From the NCBI RefSeq assembly GCF_964355755.1, contig NC_092672.1:36524437-36588436 (forward strand): a stretch of 64,000 nucleotides of DNA. The letters run 5' to 3'. The first letter of the stretch is position 1. Each line of letters begins with the position of its first letter. This stretch comes from Antedon mediterranea. Taxonomy: Eukaryota; Animalia; Echinodermata. The position numbers and the translations under genes were made by a program. The notes beneath the pieces are model-generated. The model was not told the origin of the DNA. It was given only the letters and a program-made list of their open reading frames with translations, and did no database searches. Shown here piece by piece: positions 3,706-41,129 of this stretch.

Positions 3706-4298
3706 TTTCCCGCTAGTAGAGACGCAACACAAGGACGTAAGTAAAGCGTGGTTCCCACTAGAACGCAACGCAGTGACGTATTGACGCAAAGTGTTGTATG
3801 GATTATTCGAACTGTCGCTTGTCATTAGTTCAACGCACTTAAGCGTGGTTCCCACTAGCGACGCAACACAAGGACGTAACGCAACGCAAGTGAATTGACC
3901 AATCACAAGCGATGGCTTATTCGCTTGTGATTGCTAACTGTTTATAACTTCACTTGTCATTGGTTAAAACGCTTGCGTTGCGTTTACGTCCTTGCGTTAC
4001 GTTCTAGTGGAAACCAAGCTTTACGTTGCGTTAACGTTCTTGCGGGCGTCCTAGTGGGAACCAATCTAAAGCTTGGTTCCCACTAGAACGTAACGCAAGG
4101 ACGTAAACGCAACGCAAGCGTTTTAACCAATGACAAGCGAAGTTATAGACAGTTAGCAATCAAAAGCGAATAAGCCATCGCTTGTGATTGGTCAATTCAC
4201 TTGCGTTGCGTTACGTCCTTGTGTTGCGTCGCTAGTGGGAACCAAGCTTTACGTTGCGTTAACGTTCTTGCGTGCGTCCTAGTGGGAACCAATCTAAA
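3706..4298. mobile_element. Cluster of nested Harbinger-like MITEs (family B, TIR AGCTTGGTTCCCACTAG)
   Basis: The copy at 3842-4020 has a TTA TSD and sits inside an older relative. An inverted copy lies at 4070-4248. Confidence 0.85.
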
Positions 4299-4889
4299 AG
4301 ACCGAACACTATAATTAAACCAACATAACCTATTATCGTTGTATGTCTCTATTGACATTCACACTATATTGAGATACAGTTTAACTGTATTGATATACGT
4401 ATACGGTCATTACTGATACCATTGAACGTTTTAATGGTTGATGTGTTTAGCTATTAGTGTTTTATTTTTGGTTGTAGACAATTAGTAATGGTAATTATTT
4501 TCTTGTGTTTGTGCATATAATTCTGCAACAGCTGGATCAAAATGACTTATTTATTTGATAACAAATAAAGTAATAAACCTAAATATACGCAAAGAAACCC
4601 ACAATAATTGCACTTTAAAATAGCACTATTGAGAACAGTTTTTTTTTTATTTATTCCTGATAACCGATCATTGAACCATATTTTCATTAGGTCTGTCAAC
4701 TATCTCAAGCATAACATATTATCAACCACACGTTCTCAAGTTATCCATTACGTATGTAGGCCTATTTAATATTTGACTTCTGCAACTTGTGAATGCTGGT
4801 ATACAGGTGAGAAACAATGACCTATACTAAAGTAGTTTAATTTTGCCATTAAAAAGCTTTATTTCATCTAAATCGACCAACTAAGTAAT

Positions 4890-5066
4890 GCTCTGTCTAC
4901 ACTATCAAACTAATTTGACAAAAAGTGTGATGTGCCCAATATGGTAGGGATATACCCAAATATGGCAGTGATGTACCCAAATATGGTAGTGATATGACAT
5001 CATCGTGTCCATATATGGGTACATCACTTTTTTGTCACATAAAGTTTGATAGTGTAGACAGAGTTT
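4890..5066. mobile_element. Harbinger-like MITE, family A (TIR AGCTCTGTCTACACTATCAAACT)
   Basis: Palindromic ends with TAA/TTA-type flanks. Other full or partial copies lie near 15213-15420, 16192-16266, 16673-16822, 20154-20182, 24772-24812, 27762-27877, 28984-29146, 39262-39402 and 46660-46745. Confidence 0.8.
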
Positions 5067-5448
5067 TAGATGGCCAATGACATACTGCGTTCTCTATGCT
5101 TGCTGTATGTACAGTAGGTTATTATACCTACATGTAGTGTGTGTTTTAGTAGTACAAAGGTGAGACATGTGCATTTTATGGCCTTTTTAATATTTTAACA
5201 CGCTAGCTTTTTAACATAAATACTAGACTATCAAATAATAATGTGCACTACTAATCATTGGTTTATAGTTAAATCAAGACTATCAACAGCCTTACTAGAT
5301 GCAGCTAATTGTTTGGTCCAACAACCATTCGTAAAAAATGTATAAAAGATGATGGGTGTCGGCGTTGAGAGAACAGAGGTAGGCATACGTCATTCAACCG
5401 GTAGTTCGTGACACTGACGTATCCACTTGTGGTAGCCTACGTATTTTC

Positions 5449-5468
5449 TTAAGGCACTATGCCGTTGC
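5449..5468 (-). other. Orphaned original 3' end of the SEC14L2-like CDS (codons GIVP and stop TAA), displaced 9.1 kb by the transposon
   Basis: Joining 14599 to 5468 on the minus strand reads TGC AAC GGC ATA GTG CCT TAA in frame with the last exon. Confidence 0.8.
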
Positions 5469-5499
5469 AGACCTGGTCTCGATCGTAGTGCAATTATGC

Positions 5500-5660
5500 A
5501 GCTCAGAGTCTACAATAATCGTCCTCTGATTGGCCTATGTCTACAAAAGTCTACACTTGATTGGTCAATTGTCTACAATAATTTCACCAGTCTACAATAA
5601 ATGAACTGTGATTGGTTTACGTTGGATTACGTAGTTATGGTAATGAGGAGGCGGAGCATC
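5500..5660 (+). promoter_or_regulatory. Left subterminal region of the transposon: GTCTAC repeats interleaved with inverted CCAAT boxes and a GC-box-like motif; candidate transposase promoter and binding sites
   Basis: GTCTAC starts at 5508, 5539, 5549, 5571 and 5590. GATTGG occurs 3 times, and GAGGAGGCGGAG lies near 5645. Possible 5'UTR exons follow (donor near 5750; exon 6544-6578 bounded by AG and GTAAGT). Confidence 0.5.
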
Positions 5661-6874
5661 TTCATCAAAACATTGTGTTCGTCGCGAGCAACACATGTGT
5701 GTACTACATGCCTGAGAGCTGTCAAGGGAAGATTTTATGCTAAACTTTGGTAAATTTTTAAAGAATATTTAACTGCATAAAATTGGAACTTCCAACTACA
5801 TAAGCATTCAGCAATTATTAGTAATCAAATAATCTGGTTAAACATTGATAACACAGTGGAGCTTACGGCTTGCTACGGCAAGCAAAGGTTGTAATTAGAC
5901 TCCCTCCTGCTTCCATCAAGTAGGGAGTTGTAATTAGACTCCCTGCTTCAAGCAAGCCTTATACAATGGCGACCATGGTTATACTTGTAGCCTGTCGGCC
6001 TAGTAGAGTAGTAGGGCTGGTGGTAGGCGTACTCCTTGAAGTTGTGTTCTCCTGCGGCAGCCTACTTGCCAGACACCATCCAATCCAATGAATAAAGTAT
6101 AATCATGGAGTTATACCTCCATGGTATAATTTAATTTAATTCTATACCATACAAACAATAATATTTAAACCCATTGCATTAAATTGATTTTTATATTATT
6201 TAATAATTTATGAAATAATGTATTTTTTCCCCTAAAAGTAATTTAATGGTTTACTTCTATATGGACGGGCAAAGACAAAGTAACCTGCTATTCTATGTGT
6301 CGGGGTACAGACAAATATGGCGATGCAATAAATACAATTAAAGATTTCAGTCAGCCTATGCTACAAGTAAATGTATTTCAGGTAACAGATTTCAATAACT
6401 TTTTTATCACTTTGTAACATCTGACAATATCTTAATGTAAAAACATTTTTGAAATGGGATATGCTTTATGATGACAGTATATTTCACCATTTCTTATTTA
6501 TAATATATTTTTATATATTTATAATATATTTTTCATCTTGTAGGCCTTCATCTTCAATCTATTTCAGTCAATAACAAAGTAAGTATTTTTTGCCATTTTG
6601 CTTGACATACAAGGGGAATAATTATTTATTAAAAAACAGATACATTTTTATGCGTCATATACTTATTTTTGAAATATTTTTAGTTTAATAATAATTATGT
6701 TGGTACTCGATTATAATGTTCTTCCAATGTTTATGTAAGCACATTCAGCCAGTTTATGTTAAGAATTCTCTTAGAATCATTTTTATTACAAACCTTTTTA
6801 AATTTCTGAAAAGAGACATTATTGTTATTTATAACATTTTTCATTTCCGATTCAAAATATAGGAAGTCCAATAA

Positions 6875-9800
6875 ATGAAAATGCTTCCAAAATTGCGTGT
6901 TCATAATAAAAATATCCCAGCCAATAAACAGCAATGCACTCTGTCATGCACACGTGAAGCTTATGAATATGCAAAGTCAAAGAAAACGTTGGATATTTCA
7001 AAAGAAAGATTATTCAAAGAAGAAACTGGTTTCGAATCGGCTAGACAGGTACTACAACAATCAAGACAAATTATTAACCCATCCAGAATTCAATGCCTTG
7101 GAGAACTGGTCATTCCATTTGGGAAATATTGCAACCAAAATTTCAGATGGCTTTTAGAGAATGATGTTGGTTATGCAAAATAGTAAGTACAAATGACACA
7201 TGTTTTTAATGAAAATAGTTAACATACTGTTTATAAATGGGGTGAACCAGTATTGATATAGTTGGTTACTTTTCTTGTATGATTATGTTTTTTAAATATT
7301 GACAGACATTTTCAATATTAAATTTTTTTAGTGTTATTGACAAACATTTAAAAGAAAAAGTACACCCTGGACGCAAAGTCGAAATACGGGATGGCTGGCT
7401 GAAGGATATGCTTTATGAGTATGCCGAAATGTTTCCTCCTGTAAGCTCTCATCTGGAGAAAAATATAGACTACTGCATATACGGTCAGTTTGGCTTTAGT
7501 GATAAAACATACCTTGAGATGTGGGAACTGTATAACCGTCACAAGACTCGCAATCCTTTAGAAGAAATTGATGATTTGGCAAAACAGGCTTACAATTCTG
7601 TAAGGAAATGGATTCTCACAAAACCTAACTACATATCAACAGCTACCATGAAACGATTTAGATTGTATATTTTATCAAAGGATGAGGATGAGGTGATTAA
7701 CAAATATTGTCTTATATTTATATTTGTAGGTAAATATTTGTAAATAAAAAATTGAATTATAAATTGTTACTGATTTAAAAAAAAATTATATATTCCAGAA
7801 AACTGCTAGACTAGAACAAGATGAAACCAATCGTACAGATGAACAGCCATCAACAAGCACAAGCGACTCAGGTATGAATTAATGCATTACCAGAAATAAG
7901 TTGTTTTTTTTTTAAACAAATTTTATTTAAATACATTTCATTATTATACAGCAATCATTGTTTGCATTAATCTTTAAAAATTCCCTTAATGATTTTTGTT
8001 AAAATAAATTTTTTATGTTTTAGGACCACCATTAAGAAAATATTTAAAACAAATGCAGCATAGTTCGAATATTAAACAAAAGGCTACTGGACAACCTAAC
8101 ATTACAGATATTTCTAGTCAGGTAATTAATTCAAGGATGTCTGTTATATTAGCATTTACTACACATCCCTAAGTGTGTACATAGCATTGTCAATTTTTTT
8201 TTTATGATATATTCCAGAAAACTGCTAATTTTGTTAGTGCAGATGAACAGCCATCAACAAGCACAGCACAGCATAGTACGAACATTAAACAAAAGGCTCC
8301 TGGACAAGCTAACATTAGAAATGTTTCTAGTCAGGTAATTAATTCAAGAATGTCTGTTATATTAGCATTTGCTACACATCCCAAAGTATGTATAAGCATT
8401 GTCAATTTTTTTTTAATGATATATTCCAGAAAACTGCTAATTTTGTTAGTGCAGATGAACAGCCATCAACAAGCACAGCACAGCATAGTACGAACATTAA
8501 ACAAAAGGCTCCTGGACAAGCTAACATTAGAAATGTTTCTAGTCAGGTAATTAATTCAAGAATGTCTGTTATATTAGCATTTGCTACACATCCCAAAGTA
8601 TGTATAAGCATTGTCAATTTTTTTTTAATGATATATTCCAGAAAACTGCTAATTTTGTTAGTGCAGATGAACAGCCATCAACAAGCACAGCACAGCATAG
8701 TACGAACATTAAACAAAAGGCTCCTGGACAAGCTAACATTAGAAATGTTTCTAGTCAGGTAATTAATGTTTTATTTAATTTGTTATACTATCTATATTAT
8801 CTGTGACTCATACTATTTTCAAGCAAATATTTTAAAAATATATTATTATTATTATCATTAACATCATCATTATTATGTTGGTTCTTGTGTGTTTTTTAAC
8901 TCACAGCAGGTTATCTATGAAGGATGGTGCAAAAGCTGGGAAGATAATACCACCAAAGCATCTATACCACCTGAAGACCGTGATTGGTTAAAAAATGACC
9001 AGGATAGGGGAATGTTTGGTCCTGTTCAGATGTACACAGACATTAATGGTGCGCAGCAATACCGTCGTGTTCTGAAAACAGACAGAATGTGGTTTTATCC
9101 TCCAGACAGTCCAGGTCATGTTGGTGGTAGTCCTCCAAATGCTGATGCCTTTTTTCGATCCAGACTGTTCTTTTGGCGCCCAGTTGGTGTATGGAAGTAC
9201 AGCCTAAGATGTCCTCGAACAGATTGTCCTGGTAAAGATAAGCAGGTGTTTTTGTATAAAAGTGGCTACCACGGCAAATGTAGACATGTGTGTGACATCA
9301 ATGGTTGGTATAGTATGCTGACTGAAGTTCTTGCTTGTGGTCCTTGCAACAAGGCAGCATCAGCAATAGGTAAATCAAGCTCATCTAAATGGGGTCGATT
9401 CCTAGCTTGGGACAAATCAATATTGTCGCAATTGACGCCAGCACATCAGGCAATGTTTCCTGCAGTACTTACTGTTTGGTAAGTTAGTTACAAAATTTAC
9501 TCTTCAATTAAATATTAATTTACATATTACTTTCTTTTTATTTGAAAGCAAGACATTTACGGTACTCAAATTAACACTCTTCTTTCATTTCATAGTCGTG
9601 GTGTAGATAAGAAAGTGCTGCAACTCATGAAAGATCGGACTGAAGGCAACACAATGGCAAAAGTATGGCGTCAAGTCCAAGAGAATCATTGCGATGAATA
9701 TCTAAACAGAAAGGATATGTACACAACTCTGCTAATGGACTTGTTAAAGCCTGGAAGCATTGTTTCTTCATTTCGTACAAAATTCAAAGCTCCAAAGCAA

Positions 9801-12654
9801 CGTTGGCAACTCCCATCACCAAGACTTTTAAGACATGCTTTTTTGTTGGGTGAAGCTGATAAAGTAGAAGAATACAGAACACAAATTCTCTCAACATTTG
9901 GAAAGGTCCTGAAATTTGATTCAACTAAAAAGGTAAAACACTTTCATCCAAACAGAATATAAAATACAATATGAAATCCTCCTAAATCCTAAATTTTTCA
10001 TTTTTCCAAATTTGGTACAAATACAAGGATGAGGGTAAATTGCGTCAACTTTCCCCCTCTAAATCCAACTAATGGTAATCCTTATTTTATTTTAGATATG
10101 TAAAAAATTGTCAGGTGAAGGACGAGGGACTGCCGAATGGTGTACAAACATTGGTAATGAAAATAGCCAAATTGTAAGTTTTGTTTTCACATGCGAGGAA
10201 TCGACCAAAATGCTAAAACCCATGGCAGATGGTGTAATGGAGCGTTATAGGCTGGCAGGAGAAGATGCACCACAGCTTATGTATATAGATAGAGGATGTT
10301 GCCGTGAACATGGTGCAACATCAGTAGAAGTCCTCTTTAAAGATTGGGTGGACAATGGAATGGTGATAAGGCTTGATGCTTGGCACTGGATGCACAGATT
10401 TGATGCTGCTGTTCGTACCGACAGTCATCCAAAGTTTGGCCTTTTTAAGTCCGCTTTAGCAGGAGCCGTGTTCGCTTATAACAAGGCAGATATGGACCTC
10501 TTGGTAAAAGCTGTTCGTGCAGGCTCTGACGACAACTACAGTGGGTTATCAGATACAGAGTTGATACACCAGCGTATCTCATCATTGACTGTAAAACACT
10601 ACGTGCGTAGGATTACCCAGGGCAGCCAAGAAACATTTAGGCTTCTGGACTTTGCCATCGAAACTTTAAAAGGTAATGCTGGCCTCGATGAAAATGGAGT
10701 ACCATTATTCAAATCTGATGCTGCTATCGACGAGGTTTGGACACAACAACAGCGTCACTTAGAGTGCATACAGGATCCACCGAACATGCCCATGTATAGA
10801 GTAGCGAAGATCAGTTTGAAGAATGGAATTGACATTCCATATTACACATGCATGCGTGGCAATAACAGCCTTGAAGGTTTTCATAGTCATCTGCCAAAAA
10901 TGATACCAGGTTAGTAATAATACTGCAGTTTATGCATGTACTGTATACAATGTTAGAAGCTATCACCAATATGGAAATTTTTACAAATTAAGAACTATAG
11001 ATAAAAATATTGATTGATAAAGTTCTATGTATCCAAAAAGTTTTAAAAAAATATTTATTTTCAGGTCCTCATTGTGCAGCACGACCCTTCCAGGTGTATC
11101 TATTGAGTGGAATCGCAAGGTGGAACTCTGATAGGGAAGCAGAATCAGTTTTCGGCAGAAAAGGACGTCAGCATAGGGCATATTCGACCAGTTTAATGGA
11201 AAGATTGAACAAAAGATGCGAGAAGCTGTTTGGTGAAAAGGAGGAAAAGAATTTCCGCGTTCCTGCAAAGGCAACAAATGAATTACTTGGTCTTGAGTAC
11301 TTGTTTAACCAGTCAACAGCTTGCTCTGTTGAGGATTTAGAAGATACAGGCCCAAGTATGGAGGAAGAAGTATGCCTTGATTTGGATGATGGCGATGGTA
11401 TTGATGCTGGTTATGATTCCGAAACTGACACGTTCAACAACCATATGAAACCATGTCATGTTGTATATACATCTAAGGAAGCAGCGGAGTCCCACGATCC
11501 TTCAAGTGTAAGTTGATTTCATTATTTTTTTGTATTACAATGCAAACCTGTATACTTTAAATGGGGAATTTAAAAATTATTTCATGTTAGTTTAACTTGT
11601 ATCGATCACGATTTCACAGGAAGATGTCTGTATGAGTAAAAAACATCTCAAGGGATTTGAAAAGGTAGAAATTCTAAGCAACTTGCTAGTAGGCCTGGTT
11701 TTGGACAAGTTACCTATAATACCTTCAAACAAGAGAAAAGAGATTTTTCAAATGTGGGATAGCCTAGATTCACATGATAAATGCTACAAACATTTCCGCA
11801 CAGCTTACAAAACACAATGGGGAAATACCATGTATGGGCGAACAAAGGGTGATGAGATAGAAGCTTCCATAACGCAGCGAATAAAGCATCGCCATCGTTT
11901 CACGCCTGCGCAGAGCATTGATGTGCAGAGAAATCGTTTAATGTTTAGCATTATAAAGCATTTATGGTTACAGTACAGTAGCAATACACTGATTCTGCAG
12001 CGCTATCAGACTTTACAACAGCTTGTAATTGGTGATCCTGTGCTGGGAAAGCTTGGTATTCCACTGGGAAATATTAACTTGAAATGTATTCGAACTTTCA
12101 TACAGAGACAGCAAGCACTTGCTAGTGTCGGATCAACTGAGCAGAGCAGATACATCACAAAGAAAATGGATAGCATCTCAAATACAACTTTGCCGGCTGC
12201 ACCTGAATTCCCAGCGACACAGCCTGAAACTTCCTGGCCAGAAACAACCACTTACCCAGAAATTGAGTGTTTGGCAGGAACAAAAAAAATGAAAAACAGA
12301 ATTGACGAGAGTGATACAAAGAAAGGTGAATTTTCAAAACGAGATACAGCTCCAGTGACAGTGACCTTACCAACTAGTACACAAGTGGAACAAGCACCAA
12401 CGACGTCATGGGCAAGGTCAACCATGTTTAAAAGACGTACACAAGAAAAATCCGGTGAGATTGTTCTGAAAACAAAAAAGAGAAAAGAGGCCCTTCCAAT
12501 TTGTGCGCTGTGTTCCAAACCCATGCATGGCCATAAAAAATATAAGAAAAAAACGTGGTGCGAAGAAAGCAAGAAATCTACATCAAAAGGCCTTAAAACA
12601 ATTAACTTTAATAATTTTGAACATTTTAAAGAAATTGTCGATAATTTAGATTAG
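6875..12654 (+). CDS. Putative multi-exon transposase, about 1,463 aa: FGKY-motif N-terminus, Ser/Thr/Gln repeat linker, Cys-rich domain (DUF6729-like from memory), DDE core, C-terminal CxxC..H..C finger
   Basis: Twelve exons joined by GT-AG introns keep one frame: 6875-7182, 7332-7692, 7799-7871, 8024-8121, 8218-8334, 8430-8546, 8642-8758, 8907-9478, 9596-9932, 10096-10909, 11065-11507, 11620-12654. The sum is 4,392 nt with no internal stop. Candidate catalytic motifs are LKFDSTKK (D at 9918), MYIDRGCC (D at 10288), RLDAWHWMHRF (DxxH at 10375-10386) and RGNNSLEGFHSHL (E at 10873). Confidence 0.85.
8122..8766 (+). repeat. Tandem intron+exon duplication inside the transposase gene (about 212-bp unit, 3 copies)
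   Basis: Three identical 117-nt phase-0 exons at 8218, 8430 and 8642 encode KTANFVSADEQPSTSTAQHSTNIKQKAPGQANIRNVSSQ, each preceded by a near-identical 95-96 nt intron. Confidence 0.9.
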
Positions 12655-14311
12655 TTATGGACTCTTTTTTCATATTTAAATAGTATACAGTATATATAGT
12701 AGTATTATAATGAGGTGACATCGGGTATGAAGCGTCTCACATACACACAGAGCCAAAATGGCATCTTGGACTTGCACAGTGTATGGACTCTAACCTTACG
12801 GTTTTCATTAAATATATCATTCCACGCTATCATCCTAATTATCTGATTTTCAAACTTTTGCATTCCTCTTTTTTCATCTCATCCATTTTTTCTTGGTGAA
12901 AAGGGAGGATATTTTATATTCCTCCTCTGAGTTTATAGCCTCTCTACCCGAACACGAACAAGATAGTGACTTTTATAAGTCTGATTTTACACATAAAACT
13001 GTTTTCATTCATTACTGAATTCAAGATTGCATAACTTTAAACATTTTTAAAATGTAAATATTTAATGTAATTTAATGTAAATACGAAGATTCATTAGAGG
13101 GCACATAGAGTTATATTTATTTTGTTAAGTTGTTAATAGAGAAGAGAAAAAAACAAAAGTTTACTGTCTACAGAAGTCTGTGCACATGAGATAACTCTTT
13201 TATTTTACATTAATAGTTTTGTATTGCTAAGAGGCAATGAAATAATAATTGTGAACCGTTTATATTTTAATATTCTTAATTTGTTAACTTGTTACATAGA
13301 GAAGAATAAGAAAAACCAAAGGATTGTGTAGAAGTTTACACATAAGAAAACTATTTTTATTTTATGCTTGCATACTTTTAATTAATAATATAATTTTTAC
13401 AATTCAATAATGTTTAACGGCAACAAAATTGTTGAATCCTATACGTCGGTACTACAGGTATATTGTTTATTATTATTCAAGTACATCATTGGCAATGTAA
13501 TACTTTCGAACCGTTTTCTGTTTATATTTTAAATTAATCTTAATTTTTTAATTTGTTAGAGAAGACAAAGAAAAACAAAAGGATTGTATAGAGGTTTGCA
13601 CATTTAGTTTTTTATTATAATACAATTTTCACAATTCAATCCACAACAAATAGTGTGGAATAAAATCTATGCCTGTACTTATGCTAATATGTACAGTAAA
13701 CTTAATACTATTATTATTATACTGTATTATCTTCCCTGGTATTAATGTGTTGAAAATTGAAATATAGTTTCAATGTGATGAATTCCATTCACGTTTCATT
13801 TTAAAAAACAATTAGAAAAAGTTTAATTGTAATTGCTAAAATGTATACTACCTCTCTCTGGCCTACCTCATTGAAAAAGTACTAATTACGGGACATTAAT
13901 TAATATATGATGTGAGACTAAAAGTATCTTTTAATAGGCCTATAGATAATTATAAATAGAAAATGGGTAACTGTTTTTATTTTACACATGAACAGTATGT
14001 AATTATTGTTTTTATAGATCATTTATAATAAATATTTTAACAGTTGGCCTAGGCCTAACCTCTATCTGTGTATGCCTACACACTTTAAAATTCCGCCTAG
14101 GCCTACGATCAAATTTCTCAGGATATCAATAAAGCATTGTTTTACCCTCATCTAGAGACTAGTTACCTCTGAAAAAAGGAGATATATTTAATAATAAAGT
14201 TTTCAAATTTCAAGTAAAACTAAAAGTATTATTGATTCATTTATGCCGTTGTACGATGGTGGTTGCAGGAAAATGTACACAAACCCCCTGATTGGACAGC
14301 ATAAATAATGC

Positions 14312-14545
14312 TCATGAATATAACGTAGACTTCATGAATATAACGTAGACTCTCCATAGGCTTTTTTGTACACCTCATGAATATAACGTAGACTCTGACC
14401 TTCCTCATGAATACAACGTAGACTCTGACCTTCCTCATGAATATAATGTAGACTCTCAACCAATAGCAATACAGTAATTGCTCCACTGTGATTGGATGTT
14501 GTACAACAAATTCTAATTTTAATATCATGAATATAATGTAGACTG
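14312..14545. repeat. Right subterminal repeat array of the transposon (TCATGAATATAA(C/T)GTAGACT, 6 copies)
   Basis: Six near-identical 19-20 bp units, each carrying the reverse complement of the left-end GTCTAC motif. Confidence 0.85.
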
Positions 14546-17500
14546 TCAGCCAATGGCGCTACAGTGATTGCACGACGGGTGAACGGAGGTCTCGTTGCAG
14601 TGTTCCTTTGCTTTTGTCGTGTTTTCATTCATTGGTGGTCGCACTTCAACATTGTATCTTACACTTTTACTCTGTAGAATGTTGGTATTTTCAAATGTAA
14701 GCACATCTAAACAAAGAAGAACACTATTAGTTTAAATGTGTTTCTTTTTTCTTATTCGCACCCAAAAGCAACTTGCAAACTATAACTTATCGTGCCTAAA
14801 CTAAGTCTAAAATCATACATGAAGCTTGGTTCCACTAGAACGTATAGGCAAGAACGTAAACGAAACGCAAATAGTTTGACCAATCACAAGCGATGGATTA
14901 TCAGAACTGTCGCTTGTCATTGGTTAACTCCCCTGCGTTGCGTTACTTACACAGTCCAACTTGTATACAGACTATTTTCCCTGATTCTGGCACTTGGTTT
15001 GAGTTGTACTTTGCTTTTGACTGGATTATTTTCAAATCTTTCTCCTTCTCTTTTTCAGCTTTATTTTTCTTAAATATTCCAAATATGATTGCTTCATCCG
15101 AATTGAAATCCCAACTGAGGAAAATGTGAATAAAGAAGTACGATTAGTGTTGACATTGTCGATAAAGTTTAACATTGAAAAGAGTACTGTTGTTGCCCGT
15201 AGCGTAATGAGGACTCTTTTACAGCCTTGGGTACACTTTATGTGACAAAGCAATGTGATGTAACCATATAGGGACATGATGATGTCGTATCACTACCATA
15301 TTGCGGCATATCGCCACCGTATTTGGGCATATCGCCACCGTATTTGGGCATATCGCCACCGTATTTGGGCACATCATACTTTTTCTTGTCAAGCTAGTTT
15401 GATAGTGTAGACAGAGCTTTAGGCTTTTTTGTACATACCTTATAACTGAGTTTTCTTCTGTTATCTCTAGTTTGACGTAATGTGACGATTTAGAAGGTAT
15501 TGATACTTTTTGCAAATTTTCAATTTCTTGTAATTCTTTATTGACGTAGTACGATCGAGGTACTTTGCCACCCCAACATATCTATAAGAAATATAATTAC
15601 TATAAAGTAAATTGTAACTGTAAATGCACACACGAGAGTAGCCATCTCTTTCACGCATCTCGCAAATCGGGAGCATCTCATAAATCGGGCGCATCTTGAA
15701 CATCGAGCGCATCTCGTAAATCGGGCGGAAACTGTACATCGCAGCGCATCTCGTATATCGGGCGCATCTCGTACATCGGGCGCATCTCGTACATCGGTGT
15801 GTTTTCGATAAATTTGTTTTATGTTAAAGAATTTTTGCTCGAGGATTTTGCTAGCGTCTATATCTTCGTCGTCATTTTATTTATCTTTGCCATAGTAATA
15901 TTTGTCATATCTTCGTCAGAATTATTATAGTAATTAGGCCTACCATACCTCATCTTTACATTGCGGACAACCGTTTGAATCTGTTCTTGTCCCTCCGTAA
16001 GCTTTTGGTAGCTGGTCAGGATCGATATACTCTAGTAAAACCTGTAATTGATTACCTGTCGGTAATAATATAAGTTAAGTAACACAAATGTGCTATTAGA
16101 ACATTACACTTATAATAAACATTATGTTAGTCTCCCAAAATAATCTACCTAAATATACTTATTGTGTGCTTTCAATCTATCGTCGTGTGTAAGCTCTGTC
16201 CACACTATCAAATTTGATGTGACTTTTTTTTTCAAACTAGCTAGTTTGATAGTGTAGACAGAGATTAAGGTCGAGTTGTTCTCAGTTTCGATACAGTTTT
16301 ACGGTGTCTTGTAAAATAGATATAGTTTCAAAATGACAAGGCCTATTGTATATCCATCCACTCTTCTTTTAATATTATATTTAATATTTACTTTTGAGGA
16401 ATTTGATCTTGTGTGTTGTGTCTTCACTTAGAAACGGTTTGATTAAACTGAAACCCGCAGATACCATACTTGGAGCTGTAAATTGAAAATATGCATTTTA
16501 TTTTACTTTCGGCAAACAATCAAACAACAACATTAATGCAAAGGGGTAAACATAATTGATTGAGCATCAAAGAGAAAACTAGACAAGAGTGTTATTAATA
16601 ACTCCAGACTGGTTGTAAACAGAATTTGGTTTACAGCACTATAAATATTTGCGTCGAGCGCAGCGTGGAGTAAAGCTTTGTCTACACTATCAAACTAGAA
16701 GTGTGATGTGCCCAACTATGGTGGTGATATGCTCACATATGGTAGTGATGTGACATCATCAGGTCCATATATGGGCACATCCAATTTTTGTCACATAAAG
16801 TTTGATAGTGTATACAGAGCTTAACACAATTAGAAGTTTGTATTGATGGGTTAGTTAGATTAACATAATAGGCCTAAAGCCTAGCCTCTAAATTTGAATG
16901 TAGTGTTGTTGTCGAATTAGTTCAGTTCATGCAAATCATCACAATAAATATTATAGTATACTGAAAAATATAGATTACCATTTAGTACAAAACATATTTT
17001 AAGTACTTCTGGGTAGTTGGCCTCAAACATTGTAAAAGCGGCATTGTACGCATCAACTAACGGTTGCCATATATGGTGATATTCAATTGTATCAAGATCA
17101 ACAATTACAATGACGTCATCAACAATTTTACCAAGCTAAAAAAATTAAATTATAATAATATTAGATCAGAGACGTACGTTTCTGATTTAATAGTATATGA
17201 AGATTCATGTTTTTGCTAAATAAATGTGAACACTTGAATTGAATATAAGTATGACACGCTATGTGTGCCAACAAAACTTTCTCTTTTAAGCAGAATCGTC
17301 GTCGTCGTCTTGTTTACCTTTTTCGATTGTTCTTGAAAATCTTTCAATATTATTTCACAAAATTTAGTTTTGTATCGGACAAAATCCGACTTATTACAAG
17401 ATCGAACTATGCCTTTTGGATCTATACGCCCATACGGTTCGATCCAGATGATACCCCCATCTTTGTGATGCCCGCATATTCCACCCGGCATGTACTTTGG

Positions 17501-20500
17501 CAAAACCTAGAAAAATAGGAAATTGAAAATAATTAGTATAGTCCTAATGTTTTATTAGTGTGTGCTTATTGTATGTGGTAGGCCTATACCCGGTCAGTCA
17601 ACTTATCGAAAATAAAATTAAAATCGTAGTTGTTTCTACAGATAGTAACGCACGTGTTTAGTTTTCATATCTGAAATTATTTTGCGTCCTTATCACCACC
17701 TCTCGTCCTCATCACCACTTACTCGTCCTCATCATCACTCTCGTACTCATTTTCACCACGTTCATTGACACCGTGTCTTTCTCACCATACTCCTGCGTCC
17801 TCATCACCACCTCTTCCTCATCACCACCTCTCGTCCTCATCATAACTCTCGTTGTCACCACGATATCAATATCACCACATCTTTCTCACTATCACCACCC
17901 CGTCCTCATTATCACCACCCCGTTCTCATTATCATCACACCGTTCTTTTTATCATCACCACCCGTCCTCATTATCACCACCCCGTCCTCATCATCACCAC
18001 CCCGTCCTCATCATCACCACCCCGTCCTCATCGTCACCACCCCATCCTCATTATCACCACTCCCGTCCTCATTATCACCACTCCCGTCCTCATTATCACC
18101 ACTCCGTCCTTATTATCACCACTCCCGTCCTCATTATCACCACTCCGTCCTTATTTTCACCACCTCCGTCCTCATTATCACCACCCCGTCCTCATCGTCA
18201 CCACACCCCCTCCTCATGATCACAACTCCGTTCTCATCACCACCCCGTCCTCATTATCACCACTCCCGTCCTCATTATCACCACTCCCGTCCTCATTATC
18301 ACCACTCCGTCCTTATTTTCACCACCTCCGTCCTCATTATCACCACCCCGTCCTCATCGTCACCACACCCCCTCCTCATGATCACAACTCCGTTCTCATC
18401 ACCACCCCGTCCTCATTATCACCAACCGTCCTCATTATCACCACCCCGTCCTCATTATCACCATCCGTCCTCATTATCACCACGTCGTATACTACCACAC
18501 CATCATCACCACGGAATAAACATGTAGTATACAACACTATCCATGTTCGTCATGTATACGATCATTTCATGCACTGTGCTCCTATCATCGTAACGCTATC
18601 CTCATCCTTATTATTCTACCTACTCCATGTTAGTTAGCATAGCTTACCTCGGGCGGATTCCAATCTAGAATCCCATCTATATTCATCTGTTTTCTGAATA
18701 TTAGATGCTGTGAATATGAATTAAAGACTTTTTTCTTAGGCGTATTCATAGGTTTTTTTATATGCTATATCGATTACACGCTATATCGATTACACGCATT
18801 CGGTAAAATAATTTATTCAATTCATTTATTTAAAAAAAACAACCTCCACAAACAAATAAGTACAGATTATATTTTGTTTTAGATACCTAACTTCTCAGTA
18901 CTTCTTCAGTCTATTGTAACTCATGAATTTGTTTTTACTTCACCAATGAATAAACATCTTAACTACATTGAATAAAACAGTTTTAACTGTGTCTATTTGT
19001 ACTCATTGTGTCTATTTGTACTCATTGTGTCTATTTGTACTTATTGTGTCTATTTGTACTCATTGTGTCTATTTTTACTCACGTCTCTTAACATTTTCTC
19101 GGATTTTGACAGGTCGAACTTGCGAGCTGTAATAAGATGATACGTTCATTATGTTATTATTTTTATTTTATTTTATTTCATACTCATCCAACAGCGAGTA
19201 ACCCGCCAATTACAGGATGGATAAACTATTTAATAATTTCACAAGACAAACATATAAACAAGATGCTCTACATAAACAAAGACTTATTATTAAGTCTTTG
19301 GGAGTGGAGTTGTAAATTGTCATGAGAAAAAAACCCTGACTTGAACCCAGGACCCTTAGATTGGTAGCCAAGCATCATAACCACCAAGCCACAACGCTAC
19401 TCCACTCCATTACTGTGTAATGATCTCAGTTAACTTTTGTTATTACATTTTTTTCTTGTTCATCTACTGATCCTCTGATATATGGTTGATCAGGGCAGTA
19501 AGAAATTGATTTAATGGTCGTTTGTATTAATATTATTAAATTGGGTGGTTGCTTGATGATTTAGTTTTGTAATCGATCAATCACTTGATTGATTGATTGT
19601 GATCGATTAATTTATTATTATCAATTTTATCAATACCTCGTAGCCATCTCAGAAGGTAATGATCATCGTGACGAGGTGAAAGGTCATCAGAAAGGTTTTG
19701 ACGAAACTATAAGACAAAAAATATTTAAATAGTGTGAAACTAAAAGCAAATCAACTAATCGTTTAAATGTAATTCTTGTTCATTTACAGTATTGTAATTG
19801 AACCATTGTTTAGTTCTATTTATTCTTGCGCTTTTGGCGTTTCATAACAAGCTATTTAGTGTATAAATAAGCCTATTTGTACCAGCAAAGTAGCTGTGGC
19901 AGATTAATGTAATAGCAACTGGCTCATTTATTTTTATCGTCTGCTAAAGCTTGCTTGCATTTATTGCGCCAATACTGAGAATGACCTTTCGCTTTTTACC
20001 AGAAGGTCTTCTTCGCTTGATCACTGGGGGGAGGGGGAGTCAGGGAATGGTTTACAGTAGCCTAACCCATGCACGTACAAAATGTCAAATTTAAATGGTA
20101 ACCTTTTTCATGTAATAGTAAATTGATCAATAGGTAATTGTTCCAAAGTCTAAAGCTCTGTTTGATAGTGTAGACAGAGTTTAAGGGATATCGTAAGGAT
20201 ACTTATCCAGCGTGGCCTGTCCAGTGAATATAAAAATCCCGGACTTTTATTAAAAAGAAATTAACATTCAAGGTTTTTTTCTTTTAATATTTAATGCGTT
20301 TCATTACAGCAGTTGCTTTATCCACACAAAGCAGTAATCCATACCACTTAATAGGGTACCATGGACACAATATTATCACTTCATAAGTTGATAATTGTAA
20401 CTTAGATTATAATTATTGTATTGCTCGTGTTTAATATAGCTTATCAAATAATAAATTTAGGCTTTTTTTCAATAATAATTGTCCAGACTTTAATATTCTT

Positions 20501-22351: not shown

Positions 22352-25300
22352 ATGTCGGTGAGCTTAGAAGAGTACTTTAGGACGACATTTGAGGATAAAC
22401 TCCTCGTGTAAGTTTTGCTTGTTTTGTCTGAAGAATTATAAAACTAGCCTCCTTCCTACCTATCCCGACCTAACTAGGCCTAGCTAGCCTAGGTAGGCCT
22501 AGCTAGCTAGTTAAGTTAGGCCCTCCCTTGGCCTGCCTGGCTAACTAGATGATAGAGCTAGATAGCCTTGAATAAGAGGCCTAGTTGATGATGCTGAGTA
22601 GGCTACTCTAAGATAGGCCTAGAGGGTAGTAAGGATTAGGATAAGGCCTAAGGCTTAATAGCAGTATGAATATAGGCCTAGGCCAGGGGGCCTAGCCTAT
22701 ACTAGTCTAGGCCTAGGCCTATATGCTTCATAAATGTCAAACTCAAATGACTCTAAAAACTAAAGTAAGAATAAGATAAAAAGAAAGATTAAGAATAGCA
22801 ATAATGTAATGTTCAATAACAGCATGTACTAGTAGGCTAGGCTCTAAGCCTCTATTATACTAATAATAATATTATTATGAAACCAATCAATATAGTATCT
22901 TTTTTATTTCATAGCAAAATGCCAGAGAGGGAGGATGATCATTTAACTCCAGCTACTCGGTTACTTGAGAAAAGACGAGAAATGTCAGAAGTTGAACAGG
23001 CTTTAGCTGCACAGAAAGAGGCAAGTGAATAAAGTGAACCACTCTCACATGGTACATATTTTATGTGAACCACTCTCACATGGTGCATATTCTATGTGAA
23101 CCACTCTCACATGGTGCATATTCTATGTGAACCACTCTCACATGGTGCATATTTTATGTGAAACACTCTCACATGGTGCATATTCTATGTGAACCAATCT
23201 TTAATCCATTTCCAGTTTCCTGACTTTCTGATCTGTAATCATTTCTGAAATACACTGTATTACAGTAAAACTTCTTAATTTTGCTAAACTTGTATTTATT
23301 CAGGAGTTTCAGATGAAGATGGAAAGCCTGCAACAACGAAGAGAAGAATTAGAAAGAAAAGAATACCAATTAAAGGAATCGCTACTCAAGTTTGATAAAT
23401 TTCTGAAAGTAAGGAAAATTAGAATATAGATTATCGGTAAAGAAATATCATGCTTTATAAGACTTATATTTTAACACTACACCTATTCAGGAGACACCCA
23501 CATTAAAAGGGCACTTTCATTTTTTTTTTTTTTTTTTTTTCATTTCTTTATTCGAATTCATAAAATAACACAACATAAAAAAAATACAAAGAATGAATTC
23601 AGGGTAACACAAAAAAGTAACCAAAGGTCAAACTTATTTCCATTGTGGCCCTTAAGGATAAAAACACCATAAGAATAAACATTTACAATAAACAATAACA
23701 CATGTAGTAACAATATAAATATAAATTATAATCTTTCAAGCATAACCTCTTTGAGATGTTTCCTGATATTTCTTTTGAATTGATTGATGGTTTCTGAACA
23801 CTGTATCAATTTTGGCAGGTGATTCCATGACGTTATTGCCGTGTTAACAAAGGTTGTTTGGGAGTGGTTACCTATATATGGTCTATAAATTGATTGAGTT
23901 GCAAATCTAGTATTGTACTGGTGAATTACATTTGCTCTACTAATACCATCATTCATAAACGTAGGGCTTAATCCATTAATAATACGATACATGTGACAAA
24001 GTTTTATCTGTTTAACTCTTAAGTCTACTGGGAGCCAATTCAGTTTGTTTAATTCATTAGCCCCAATGTGATCCCTTGGTTCAAGACCAAGAATACATCT
24101 GACCGTCTTATTTTGTGCAGTTTGCAATTTAACTTTTAATGTTTTATTGGCTCTCAAAGGTGTTCTCTTATAGGTGTGAGGTTCTACTGTATTCAAGATT
24201 ATTTACATTTCTTATTTTATCTACCGGTACCTCAAAACCACATTGTACCACAAACCAATAAAATAAACCTAGAGAATGTTTTTGCTATCTTCCAAATCTT
24301 CTATACTGTGAAAATAAATTCATTAGAATAATAATTAAATTCTACTTCTGAAAATCAATTTTTCATTTATAGGAAAATGATTCAAAAAGATCAAGAGCTG
24401 TGAAGAAAGCAGAAGATGAGAAAGAACACAAGAAAACAAAAGATAAAGAGATAACGCGGCTTTTAGAGGAGAAGGGCGAGTTGGAGCAACAACGCAATAA
24501 GTTTATGATGCGGTTGGAGAAACGCAAGATATTTAATACGTTTCTTGATCGCGTGTTGGAGTCAGCAGAAGAGTTTCAAGAATCACGGGATGTGATAGCT
24601 AGATTTGAGACACTTGTAGCAACACATAAGGTATTAACAGCTTGATTTAGCCTAGTTGAGGAACTGTACAGGGGACACCATTTTGCTTGCCCAAACTAGA
24701 TTGACTAGTTCTGTGTAAGATTTTAATCTCCAAATAGCTTTAAGTCATTCTTATGTCATACTACTTACCTAAAGCTCTGTCTACATTGTCAAACTTTATG
24801 TGACAAAAAAAATGTTTTTTTTTATTTATTTATTTTTTAAAATTTATTTATTTTTTAACATTTATTTTTTTTTTTTAATTTATTGATTTTTTAAAATGTA
24901 TTTATTTGTTTTATTTCATACATTCATATATGTAATATTTGTTTCAGGATTTAATGGATAAAGCTAGCAAATCCCAAGACGCAGTAGACGGTCACAAAGC
25001 AGAGCTGATGAAGTTTACCGAGGAGAAGAACAATGAGATATTAAGTCACAATAATCAACTAGCAATGTTACAGACGAGGCTGGACACGGCTCAGGGAGAT
25101 GCTGTTAAATGGTAACAAACTTTAATCTGTGAAATCGGTGAAACTACAGTATTAAGATAAGATAGTGACTTGTAGACGCTCCTGTGCGATTTCCAAATTG
25201 CATTTCGTCTAATTTAGGCGCGATCTTGGGTTTTATCCATGACGAGGCAAAGTGTTCTAGCATGCGTACAAAAATTGGTGTAATGGATATGGGTCTGATT

Positions 25301-28300
25301 TGATTTAAGTTAACCGGTCCTTTCACTTTAGGAAGTGGGGTTATGGTCGCCTCTTTCCACTTGCGCGGGACTATGCCTTGCGAGAGTGATGCGTTGTAGA
25401 TGTCAACTAACGGTGATGCAATTTCAAATGCGAATTCTTTGATGGCGCGAGGCGGTAGATCACCCGGGGCAACTGATTTGTTGCAGTTTATTTTCTGAAG
25501 CTGATGATACACCTGCCAGAAGTTGAGTGTCGGTGCATAGCCACAAGGAAGGTATGATGGTAGACTATTAGTTTGTAGGGGTTCAATCTTCTGGCATATA
25601 TTCGCTAGGTAGTTATTTATTAGTTCGCAAATTTTAAGCGGATCGGTTTCTTCAGTTTCTAGATTCAACACCGATTTCTTTTTATTCGTACCGCATATTT
25701 GGTTAACTTTTTGGAACCACTGCTTTGCGTTAGTGTTTTGCAGATTGTTAACTTCGTATTTGTAGTATTTAATCTTTGCTTGTTTGATTTCCCAAATTAC
25801 TTGGTTTCTAAGTGTACGGAAATTGCGGGACATTTTTCCATATTTATGAAAACTAATTTGTCTCTTCTTACAAAGTCCTTTTATTTTTGGTGTGATCCAT
25901 GGTTTGTCATTTGAATGAACTTTAATTCTGCGCTTTGGAAAACAACGTTCGTATGCCAGACATAATGTTGATTCGAAAATATTTACTTTTTCATCAAGGT
26001 CGTCGGTTTCCAGTATTTCATGCCAATCTTGTGATGTTATCCATTGACCAAATCTATTGCAAGCAGATTCGCTAAAAGGCCGGGGAGACTTAATAACATT
26101 GCGGCCCTTAATGCAGACGAATCCAGGTTTTGGTTTCCATAAAATCGAATTCAATCATTATGCAGAATGTAATGTATATCTTTAAAAGAGATGATATACA
26201 TTATTTAATACTTGATTAAAGGTCGTATAAAATATTGAATTCATGCTTGATATTACATTTCTTGAATAATTCATATTTACTACAGTATTTCTTCACACAA
26301 TTTTCTAGTGATTATAACTAAACTCTAGAGGGCAGATGACAATTTTTTATGTTCATCAAAGCAAATTCTCACTGTAAAGAATGTGTATTTCACAGTGAAA
26401 AATTAAATTATAAAATTTATTAATATTAGATTTTTTAAATAAATAATTTAATTTATTATACAGAAGTTCTCCTTTTGGACACCCCTATTTAGGGCCATAG
26501 CCAGCATGAGCACTACCTTGTCTTAGGGACACCCCTATTTAGGGCCATAGCCAGCATGAGCACTACCTTGCCTTAGGGACACCCCTATTTAGGGCCATAG
26601 CCAGCATGAGCACTACCTTGCCTTAGGGTACATTGGACACCCCTATTTAGGGCCATAGCCAGCGTGAGCACTACCTTGCCTTAGGGACACCCCTATTTAG
26701 AGCCATAGCCAGCATGAGCACTACCTTGCCTTAGGGTACATTGGACACCCCTATTTAGGGCCATATCCAGCATGAGCACTACCTTGCCTTAGGGACACCC
26801 CTATTTAGGGCCATAGCCAGCATGAGCACTACCTGGCCTTAGGGACACCCCTATTTAGAGCCATAGCCAGCGTGAGCACTACCTTGCCTTAGGGACACCC
26901 CTATTTAGGGCCATAGCCAGCATGAGCACTACCTTGCCTTAGGGACACCCCTATTTAGGGCCATAGCCAGCATGAGCACTACCTTGCCTTAGGGTACATT
27001 GGACACCCCTATTTAGGGCCATAGCCAGCGTGAGCACTACCTTGCCTTAGGGACACCCCTATTTAGAGCCATAGCCAGCATGAGCACTACCTTGCCTTAG
27101 GGTACATTGGACACCCCTATTTAGGGCCATATCCAGCATGAGCACTACCTTGCCTTAGGGACACCCCTATTTAGGGCCATAGCCAGCATGAGCACTACCT
27201 GGCCTTAGGGACACCCCTATTTAGAGCCATAGCCAGCGTGAGCACTACCTTGCCTTAGGGACACCCCTATTTAGGGCCATAGCCAGCATGAGCACTACCT
27301 TGCCTTTTGGACACCCCTATTTAGGGCCATAGCCAGCATGAGCACTACCTGGCCTTAGGGTACATTGGACACCCCTATTTAGGGCCATAGCCAGCATGAG
27401 CACTACCTTGCCTTTTGGACACCCCTATTTAGGGCCATAGCCAGCATGAGCACTACCTTGCCTTAGGGTACATTGGACACCCCTATTTAGGGCCATAGCC
27501 AGCATGAGCACTACCTTGCCTTTTGGACACCCCTATTTAGGGCCATAGCCAGCATGAGCACTACCTGGCCTTAGGGTACATTTTCCTGTTGAAAATGAAA
27601 TAGTCCAACCCCTATTAAGAAGACACTGTTTTGGATCCCTACCTTTTGTATGTATTATATTAATGTTGATATCGTTTTCTTAGGGAATCTGTGTGGACAC
27701 ATATTAAGAACACAGCAGCCAAGAAGACTCTACTCCTTGGCAGAATTAAAATGTAAGTTTAAAGCTATGTCTACACTATCAAACTTTATGTGACCAAAAA
27801 ATGGGAGCATATCACTACCCTATTTGGGAACATCACACTTATTTTGTCAAACTAGTTTGATAGTATAAACATAGCTTAATGATTGTACTTCTAGGACGTT
27901 AGGGCGTAATCACAATGCAAGTAAATTGACCAATTACAAGCGGTGGTTCGCATGATCCTTAAGATTACATTTGTTGCACATATTTTCTTGCGTTGCGTCC
28001 TCTCATAGTAACTACTTAATATTCTGTCATTCAGATTAAGGCTTGATTTTAAGTAATTTGTCAAGTTAAGTTGTTTTAATTTAACCCCAACATGAGCCAC
28101 TTAAACATATCTCTTGTCACTGCTTATAGAGTTGTTATTTTTCCATAACCTTTTAATTGGTTGTCTCTTACGTTTGAAATTTTCATTTAGTTCTAGCAAA
28201 CATACTTGTCAACTAATGCATTTTATTGTTAGCTAATAATGTTATTATTCTAACACTAATAATGATAAATAATATTGTATCAAGGTCATAACATAACTGT

Positions 28301-31300
28301 TAAAGTTTTATCAAGGTCATAACTAATTAAAGTAACTAATAATCAAATGGAGTGCATAAAAAACAACTATTTTAAAGTCAATTAGGTAATGAGAAGGGGA
28401 AAAGCAAAACATTGCTGCTGGCCCATCATGTTTTTTATTTCCTTTATTATGATACTGTTATTACTATGTAATTGTTCGTTTACAATAAACCATTGATTAG
28501 CGAAAGATATTTTTGTTTGCTCCCATTTGCCTTTGGTGAATTGAGATAAGAAATTATGAAGTGAAGGGGATGGTACGACTGTGTTGTCTGTCTGACACTT
28601 TACCATTCATATCAAGTCTAGATATGGTACTATTCATAATAAAAGTATAGAAATGCAATTTCATTATGTGAAAATACATTTAAATAAATGTTATTATATG
28701 GCAATAATATCTGTCTGTGTTGACATCAAATATTCCAAAATTCTGTTCATAATGTAAACTCCGTCTTGCATGACAATGACGAAGGTTTTTGTCTTGACTA
28801 CATTATTTTATTGTTAGATGCTTAGTGTAATTTTATTTATTTTAGTGCTATTTTTACAGGGTATGATGTCAATAATCTCAACCCAATGTATTTATACTGT
28901 ACAGTACATAATTATTAATTAATTAATTATTAATTATTAATTACTAATTAAATGGCAAGCACCAATCTGAACTCATGACTTCAAAGCTCTGTCTACACTA
29001 TCAAGCTAGTTTGACAAAAAAAGTGTGATGTGCCCAAATGTGGCAGTTATATGCCCAAATATGGTAGTGATATGACATCATCATGTCCATATATGGACAC
29101 ATCACATTGTTTTGTCACATAGAGTTTGATATTGTAGACAGAGCTTAATATTACTGTACATATGTAGATGCATATCATCAAAGCCATAGTTTGATAAAAG
29201 CATATTTTAAAAAATGCCAAGTCTCATCCTAAATAGATCATTTATATTCCTACTTAGGTTTTTTTTAATTCTAAAGTCATGGTTCGAGTCCTTTTTGAAG
29301 TCACAGATTTATTCTCATCCTATCATAATATAGAGATGATCATTATGCATGCTTGTTTTCATTGTGACATCATGCGAAACGCCTTAAGTTCAATTTAGCC
29401 TAAATAAATGATAATGCAGTACGCCTCTATGCATAATTTATTATTATAAAAATAAGTAATGCCAACAAAACAACTAAATTGAAAATATTAGTCCAGATGA
29501 GTATGTTTTGTAAAACTTTTCCCGAGGCTAAATAATTATTAAGAACAGAAAGGTAGATGTGAGAAGTAGGCTGCTGTGTGCTGAGCTATTATGTTCATTT
29601 TCATTACGTTCTTGTCCCCCGTAGTATATTTATATTTTGAGTAATTTATGTTTTGAAATCTTGCGCATTTCATTCTTTATTCCCAATCCCAAGGCTGTTA
29701 TTAATATCAAGTAGTGAATCGGATAACAACATTTCATTGCTTGTGATTTCTTTTGAGAATTATTATTCTATCTGTGTGCGGATTGCATCGAAATATAGAG
29801 TGTCGTCCGTCAATATCTATTTCTAAATGCTTATGGTAATTTAATTATTAAAACAGTATTCTGAGAAAGTTGTTTAAAATCGTAAAAAATGATTTTATGA
29901 ACTTTTATGGCTTAGACTGTATTGCTAGATATTTCTTTCAAGATTGTGTTTTTGTTTTATAATAATATTAAAATTCATTGAAGCTACACTTTTACAATGG
30001 CGGCACACATTCATACAGGTGTGTTCGTAGAATAAATATATTGAAAACAAACAGATACAAAAATAAAAATGTGTTTGTGTGCGATTTAAAAGCTTATTAC
30101 TATTAGCTTATTTCCATTGGGATCCTTGAAATTTGCTATAATACTTACCAAAAAGCAAATGTGATTGAAACAATACATTTAAATAAATAAATATGAATAA
30201 GTACATATATGAATAGGTAAATAGATGAATAAGTACATATGAATAAGTACATATATGGTTAAGTACATATATGGATAAGTACATATACGAATAAGTACAT
30301 ATATGAATAAGTAAATAGATGAATAAGTAAATAGATAATAAGTACATATATGGATAAGTACATATACGAATAAGTACATATATGAATAAGTAAATAGATG
30401 AATAAGTATTGTTTGTGCAGTGATATTTGTAGATCTAAATGGTAAATGTCTGAGATGTTCTAATGTGACCGATGTGATTTTAATTTGTATTTTATTACTC
30501 TGTAGAGTGACGTATGGTTATTGCTTGCATGCTATAATAAAGACATGAACTGCATGTTCATTAATAAATGTATCAGATGTTTAATTTAACCAATGTGATT
30601 TTAATCAATGATTTATTTGTCTCCAGGGCGACGCACAACTTATTTCAACTTGTTAATAGACACCAAAAACAATCAGGTTCAACGGACCTGACAGAAGAAC
30701 AGCTTTCAAAGGTAAGACTTACCACCTTACGAAGTGCATGTACAGATAAGTACATGTAAAAATAGGTACATGGACAAATAAGTACATTACAAATAAGAAT
30801 ATTTACAAGTAAGTGCATGTGCAAATAAGTACATATACGAATAAGTACACCTGCAAAAAAGTATGTGTACAAAAGTACATGTGCAAATAAATACATGTGA
30901 AAATAAGTACATGTGCAGATAAGTACAAGTGTGAATAAGTACTAATGACTACATGAGTGAATAAGTACATGTATGTGTGAATAAGTACATGGATGTGTAA
31001 ATAAGTACATGTATGTGTGAATAAGTACATGTATGTGTGAATAAGTACATGTACGAATAAGTTTGTGTATCTATTTGTTGTTAATTTTATGGCATTTTGG
31101 AGATATAATTGTAAAAAAATATCATGTTTACATCATCTACTTTGTTTACTTCATGTCATGTTCAATTTGACATCACGGAGACAAACTAGCACATACTTTA
31201 ATTAAGCACTACATCAACAGTTACACCGCTGCTGAAGACCATATAAGTTTATGTTTCTTCTCATTCAATCAAAGAAATCAGATTGTCTATTGCATTGTCG

Positions 31301-40972: not shown

Positions 40973-41129
40973 TTGGTTCCCACTAGAGACGCAACACAAG
41001 GACGTAATGCAACGTAAGTGAGTTGCCCAATCACAAACGATGGATTACTCGAACTAACGCTTGTCATTGGTTAACACGCTTGCGTTGTGTTTACGTCCTT
41101 GCGTTACGTTCTAGTGGGAACCAAGCTTA
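40973..41129. mobile_element. Family-B MITE
   Basis: Reads TTGGTTCCCACTAG ... CTAGTGGGAACCAAGCTT. Confidence 0.8.

Follow-up and report, generated by a model that had tools for sequence, protein, structure and literature searches.

Genomic Organization of the Locus

The window (the whole stretch of 64,000 nucleotides of Antedon mediterranea DNA analysed here) carries a complete DNA transposon with a multi-exon transposase gene, flanked on each side by a copy of the hexamer CGTTGC. The element and its ends are organized as follows:

5469-14592, + strand: complete DNA transposon of the Dada-U1 lineage, 9124 bp (from end geometry, gene model and the related locus L001)
5463-5468, + strand: target-site duplication CGTTGC, left copy (the only matching pair of 11 x 11)
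5469-5494, + strand: left end, AGACCT; GTGCAAT begins 19 bases further in (geometry as in L001 and fish Dada-U1)
5508-5595, + strand: left subterminal array of five GTCTAC, likely transposase-binding sites to judge by motif density
14325-14543, − strand: right subterminal array of six GTAGAC, inverted relative to the left array (motif density)
14567-14592, − strand: right end, ATTGCAC, 19 bases, then terminal AGGTCT (18 of 26 bases match the inverted left end)
14593-14598, + strand: target-site duplication CGTTGC, right copy, followed by AG as at other Dada targets

The features of the transposase gene, apart from its catalytic core (see below), are:

6875-12654, + strand: transposase gene, 12 exons, all introns GT-AG, 1462-1463 amino acids, no internal stops
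8218-8758, + strand: three identical in-frame 117-bp exons within the low-complexity linker (212-bp exon-plus-intron tandem duplication)
9057-9842, + strand: region of Pfam DUF6729, spread over two exons immediately upstream of the core (E 5.7e-29 and 7.1e-10)
9210-9347, + strand: gene-model feature whose Dada-U6_DR counterpart comprises C389, C394, C429 and C432
12502-12561, + strand: gene-model feature, a Dada hallmark

Splicing of the gene was predicted from splice signals and homology. The model starts at the ATG at 6875 and ends with the stop at 12654; five GT-AG exons between 8910 and 12654 form a single open frame, and the model aligns from residue 2 to residue 1347, at 52% identity, with P0001, a starfish protein and its best named homologue. 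Both a CCCC finger (N-terminal) and a CCHC finger (C-terminal) are present. A Pfam scan of the core exon identified no family. The 212-bp tandem duplication (window positions 8183-8818) makes the transposase linker longer, and because the three 117-bp exons are identical this expansion looks very young.

An abundant MITE-like family with ends AAAGCTCTGTCTACACTATCAAACT is found at 4886-5068, 15235-15426, 16181-16833, 27757-27884 and 28982-29153. Contigs pile up on its copy at 4886-5068, with thousands in each of four sequencing runs compared, and the family includes GTCTAC, perhaps by chance. A second dispersed inverted-repeat family (GTGGTTCCCACTAG...CGCAACGC) occupies 3730-4300, 14822-14946 and 40123-44600 and includes a 188-bp palindrome (96%) at 3841-4249. 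Tandem arrays lie at 17667-18505 and 26471-27660 (units of ~20 bp and 50-58 bp). Two ORF pieces on the minus strand (23726-26154) resemble, by eye, a broken LINE reverse-transcriptase region and had no Pfam match at E 0.001. Two exons coding a rhodopsin-family GPCR lie on the minus strand at 49618-51181 (Pfam 7tm_1, E 8.7e-34 and 2.2e-11); the receptor resembles an adenosine receptor.

The Predicted Catalytic Core

Positions 9900-10909 encode what is predicted to be a DDE catalytic core with an RNase H fold; the transposase gene to which they belong is unbroken and of the Dada-U1 lineage. Its features are listed below together with their placement in structural models:

9918-9920, + strand: first catalytic Asp, D1 (KFDSTKK), predicted by a homologue model to lie on the first strand of the RNase H fold
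9933-10095, + strand: phase-0 GT-AG intron separating D1 and D2, at a position common to named Dada families
10288-10290, + strand: second catalytic Asp, D2 (YIDRGCC), predicted just past strand 4
10375-10386, + strand: DxxH motif (DAWH), predicted directly past strand 5, where the insertion domain starts
10378-10851, + strand: insertion domain of ~160 amino acids, predicted helices and a final beta-hairpin (exon-model residues 95-252)
10873-10875, + strand: catalytic Glu, E (RGNNSLEGFH), predicted in the helix that follows the insertion

An earlier note, made from the letters of this DNA, had proposed a D(68)D(194)E core with DAWH 29 residues past D2. These values are exact once the intron 9933-10095 is spliced out, and all four motifs are in frame where that note had placed them. 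Spacings in the spliced core are 68 residues for D1-D2, 194 for D2-E and 163 from the DxxH His to E. The catalytic motifs themselves are already known biology; their assignment here is backed by conservation, by two structural models and by the D(67)D(175)E published for Dada-U6_DR.

Searches with the core exon listed 67 and 150 proteins (212 distinct) and 1217 cluster representatives at E 0.001. The 98 listed homologues that span D1 to E were aligned, the other 114 being too short. D1 is kept in 88 of the 98, D2 in 93, the Asp and His of DxxH in 97 and 93, and E in 91. The complete D, D, E set is found in 81 homologues, 26 of which have exactly the 68/29/194 spacing. Conservation extends to the 53 most distant rows (<47% identity), where D1 is kept in 47, D2 in 49, DxxH Asp in 52, His in 50 and E in 48. 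E324, E337, D434, D500 and D529 of the spliced core model are kept as well, in 92-95 of the 98 homologues. Because these other acidic residues are equally conserved, conservation alone cannot pick out the triad; the fold does.

AlphaFold models were built for the core exon, which lacks D1 (89 sequences, pLDDT 92.8), and for homologue P0004, 64% identical and with D1 included (80 sequences, pLDDT 91.6). In the P0004 model three strands are followed by a helix, a strand, helices and a further strand, which is the order seen in RNase H, and D1 (D296, strand 292-298) is on the first strand. Both models place D2 just past the fourth strand, DxxH directly past the fifth, then an insertion of ~160 residues, and E in the next helix. 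The helical-looking insertion of the earlier note is thus recovered in size and as a mostly helical domain, with a beta-hairpin predicted at its end that its description did not foresee. In topology and register, the modelled D, D and E are consistent with a DDE site of RNase H fold that carries a helical insertion.

The P0004 model was compared with solved structures. Foldseek returned ISCth4 three times and the P element twice at E <=0.001 (5e-4 for the P element), while Hermes reached 6e-3. ISCth4 also comes first among the matches listed by VIA (Z 12.9, rmsd 3.6, 263 aligned residues), followed by integrase cores (Z 8.4-9.6). If strand 1 is aligned ungapped, the VIA range starts (model residue 289, ASV chain residue 57) would set D296 on D64 of ASV integrase. 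Transib is not among the listed Foldseek and VIA matches, nor are Hermes and the P element among the 50 VIA matches listed, absences that exclude nothing. The exon-only model without D1 gave nothing by Foldseek at E <=0.001; the structural matches rest on P0004. At the sequence level, phmmer and a 35-sequence profile found no relative among solved structures.

Assignment to the Dada Superfamily

Dada elements are defined by a DDE triad with DxxH, CCCC and CCHC fingers, introns, a length of 4.7-11 kb (4666-10979 bp) and 6-7 bp duplications, together with short subterminal inverted repeats and the absence of terminal inverted repeats (PMC3706591). The window element has the triad with DxxH, the homology, both fingers, predicted introns, the length and a 6-bp duplication. 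Its subterminal GTGCAAT/ATTGCAC are also present, but the outer six bases match too (18 of 26 overall).

Named Dada families in the available part of Dataset S1 of PMC8869645 have the same KxDSTKK followed by a GT intron start. A search of that part for the E motif in six codon spellings retrieved 12 places: SLEGFH in six, all in the Dada-U1 block, SQQEGFH in five and one unrelated. The window core is identical at 183 of 291 positions (63%) to protein P0031, matched by eye to Dada-U1_TaFl. A quick tree was built from 98 rows, with homologue P0034 left out; in it the window and P0031 belong to one clade of 46 rows (SH-aLRT 99). The window row stands outside both fish subclades, at an open fork with a starfish protein. 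P0034 is a fish homologue of the transposase that bears an unrelated source name, which looks like an annotation error. The comparison covered Dada families with a named target, as distinct from the Dada-1 families (unnamed target; lancelet, oyster, sea anemone, tunicates). Motif searches in four supplements of PMC3706591 gave no match. On sequence grounds, the element is a member of the Dada superfamily, of the U1 lineage by descent.

DUF6729 is carried by 28 of 35 homologues. Our literature search found no paper naming this domain, which is now tied to Dada.

The earlier note had spoken of a Mutator-type ordering. This description holds as a resemblance, the top structural match being ISCth4 of the IS256 family, and fails as a family assignment. 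MULEs have long terminal inverted repeats and 8-11 bp duplications. A Mutator-like (MULE) transposase, as the wording of that note would have it, shares with the window gene an identical order of D, D, DxxH and E and a structural kinship with the IS256 family, and one of the three Atlas feature matches listed at a score of at least 0.9 is automatically annotated as "MULE transposase domain-containing protein", without a shared Pfam family. We nevertheless consider this reading very improbable: the MULE, Mutator and Transposase_mut profiles match none of seven window ORFs and none of the 35 homologues at E 0.1, the duplication is 6 bp long, and a 26-bp imperfect match is found instead of long terminal inverted repeats. 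The 63% identity with a named Dada, of the U1 lineage, already contradicts it.

Ends of the Element

The ends were located by applying the Dada-U1 geometry (heptamer 19 bases inside the end) to all combinations of 11 GTGCAA and 11 TTGCAC sites in the window. A single pair, 5469-14592, has identical 6-bp flanks (CGTTGC), against 0.054 expected by chance; among duplication lengths of 4 to 14 only length 6 matches. The array motif reaches 16.7 per kb at the left end and ~17 per kb over both ends, compared to 0.2-0.9 per kb elsewhere. At the two termini the six outermost bases are perfect inverted copies of each other, and 11 of the outer 19 match (P ~0.005). By eye, none of the 12 fish Dada-U1 families read from Dataset S1 of PMC8869645 has such a six-base terminal match. 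The ends of the window element are more symmetric than those of these 12 families. No repeat of the left flank (400 bases) or of the right flank (first 225 bases) was found elsewhere in the window.

The Insertion Site

Elements of this lineage normally insert into genes of the U1 splicing RNA. When the window and its two flanks of the element were scanned with Rfam, neither U1 nor any other credible small RNA was identified; the window has no tRNA gene and no Rfam match at gathering score. Weak Rfam matches in the flanks are below threshold and chance-like. The U1-target 15-mer has no match at three mismatches. The site retains the TGC|AG core and five of the seven bases of the downstream U1 target (AGTGTTC compared to the published AGGGGTC) and carries no heptamer at the U1 distance. 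Since no U1 is found in the flanks, we class the element with the U1 lineage on grounds of descent rather than as a family with demonstrated U1 targeting.

A metagenome scan retrieved three loci. L001 is 70% identical to the window over the core exon. Its left end, of the same kind and also with five GTCTAC copies, meets the 3′ half of a U1 gene (E 9.7e-14), the junction reading GATCGC|AG; its right end is not recognised in the contig. The U1 snRNA 3′ half at L001:51-124 is joined to Dada at the textbook site. The same Rfam scan that picks up this half U1 finds none beside the window element. The other two loci, L002 and L003, are fragments that lack recognisable ends.

Two readings of the site have to be considered. 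As only TGC|AG and five of seven target bases are retained, an off-target insertion at a near-match by a U1-seeking family is most likely, to go by the site itself. Dada-U6 copies are described with non-target flanks "never at both ends" (PMC3706591), but one Dada-tV_OL copy is reported (PMC8869645) as a both-sided non-target insertion in a hAT element with a full duplication. Insertions with non-target flanks on both sides thus have precedent.

The other reading is that, with the same enzyme, the family lost or relaxed its U1 targeting and evolved symmetric ends, so that the site is typical of it. Neither flank here is U1 and the 6-bp duplication is clean, contrary to the Dada-U6 pattern (PMC3706591), and the perfect six-base terminal repeat (11 of 19 bases overall) is shared with none of the 12 fish Dada-U1 families. 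However, the U1-type heptamer and its spacing are fully retained, the 70%-identical relative L001 sits in U1, the Dada-tV_OL insertion is already reported (PMC8869645), and the argument is built on one locus. We regard this change of target as rather unlikely; with a single copy seen, an off-target insertion is indistinguishable from a family-wide change of target. A further step, likewise rather unlikely, would be that the window represents a Dada family of the U1 lineage from outside fish which is active at present, has left its RNA-gene target and has gained symmetric ends. If true, such a family would stand midway in nature between site-specific and ordinary transposons, and comparison with the U1-seeking L001 would show which features give a eukaryotic DDE transposase its site specificity.

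Age of the Insertion and the Putative Empty Allele

Eight sequencing runs from three studies match the window in whole or in part, and four were compared at the left junction. Run X1, possibly the source of the assembly itself, has a contig of 428 bases whose end falls exactly at 5470. A contig of 848 bases from X5, which stems from a different sample and study, matches 5042-5470 and, by its record coordinates, continues for another 415 letters. The empty allele is expected to have a single CGTTGC followed by AGTGTTCC; it would read CGTTGCAG|TG and diverge from the window at 5471. We infer that the X1 and X5 contigs are compatible with an insertion that is recent and polymorphic and that made a true duplication; the complete copy likely arrived recently. 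A hexamer travelling with the element was also considered and is disfavoured: CGTTGC differs from the U1 hexamer and is carried by the putative empty-allele contigs. Runs X6 and X7, which have another organism label, contain diverged pieces of the element interior.

The flank contig 5042-5470 has a depth of 207 in X5, a run guessed to be RNA, compared to ~4-70 for the other listed pieces, depths that are not taken as copy number. Should X5 indeed consist of RNA, the empty site may be part of a transcript.

The same contigs bear on whether the gene is a domesticated, immobile host gene resembling dDada. Its multi-exon gene is intact and present as a single copy within the window, and one domesticated Dada is known in carp-like fish (PMC8869645). 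That dDada is described there with a mutated DDE and DxxQ, whereas all five residues are intact here; both ends and the duplication are intact too, and the contigs suggest an empty allele. Domestication is therefore hardly credible for this copy.

Mechanism of Transposition

Taken together, the locus very probably represents a DDE core of the Dada-U1 lineage whose element likely inserted recently, with a 6-bp stagger, at a site without a recognisable U1 gene. By analogy with other DDE enzymes, the D, D and E carboxylates would bind two metal ions, and the insertion domain may steer flanking or target DNA. The DxxH His could touch the scissile phosphate as it does in Hermes (PMC7780238). Cleavage of the ends and strand transfer with a 6-bp stagger would then create the CGTTGC duplication.

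P element and Hermes are cut-and-paste transposons. For Dada we consider a cut-and-paste pathway somewhat probable and prefer it over an ISCth4-like joined-end route. In the latter, Dada would transpose in the manner of IS256/ISCth4: its ends would be joined, with a short spacer, in a circular intermediate, and the targeting of U1 would be the same reaction on a mimic of the ends. The nearest solved structure is that of ISCth4, a copy-out/paste-in enzyme (PMC7780238); the hexamer links tandem Dada-U1 copies, and hexamer replacement and one-ended events are reported (PMC3706591; PMC8869645). But the fold does not fix the pathway, as P element and Hermes match too, and the hexamer here, which is not that of U1 and is present in the putative empty-allele contigs, acts as a true duplication. 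The joined-end route is possible, on the unlikely side, and cut-and-paste remains the pathway that we prefer.

Comparison with Known Systems

PMC3706591 presents Dada as the first superfamily of eukaryotic DNA transposons found to be target-specific and suggests its use for gene delivery. In the texts of PMC3706591 and PMC8869645 consulted, no Dada activity assay is given. The window copy is intact and apparently polymorphic, and since its two ends are known to the base it could serve directly as an assay substrate; its non-U1 site bears on the strictness of Dada targeting. The combination of intact copy, non-U1 site and symmetric ends is the part of this locus worth following.

MULE, hAT (Hermes) and P element transposases have in common with the window core a C/DxxH motif and a helical insertion, and differ from it by the absence of a sequence-level match and by other end structures and duplication lengths. 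ISCth4 (IS256 family; PDB 6xgx, 6xg8) has the triad D175, D241, E348 and a C/DxxH motif in its helical insertion (PMC7780238). It resembles the predicted structure in its RNase H fold and in C/DxxH at the start of the insertion. It is, however, bacterial, ~10% identical, with an insertion of 65 residues (261-325) compared to ~160 here, an 8-bp duplication and 31-bp inverted repeats (PMC7780238).

Dada-U6_DR, the Dada type member, is closer (PMC3706591). The D, D, DxxH, E order is the same, D1 and D2 are spaced by 67 residues compared to 68 here, both have CCCC and CCHC fingers, and the exon number (11 compared to 12) and length (8963 bp compared to 9124) are similar. It differs by a D2-E spacing of 175 residues, against 194 here, and has its own subterminal motif CAGAGAAGA and target, U6.

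The closest system is Dada-U1 (Dada-U1A/B_DR, Dada-U1_TaFl and others), which PMC3706591 and PMC8869645 list from ray-finned fish only. Likeness extends from the core, with 63% identity to the Dada-U1_TaFl product, SLEGFH and shared intron positions, to both zinc fingers, the size, GTGCAAT/ATTGCAC 19 bases inside the ends, the GTCTAC-type arrays and the 6-bp duplication followed by AG. The window element differs from Dada-U1 in its non-U1 flanks, in its duplication (CGTTGC instead of ATTCGC) and in its right end, AGGTCT instead of GCC, which creates a short terminal inverted repeat in the window element.
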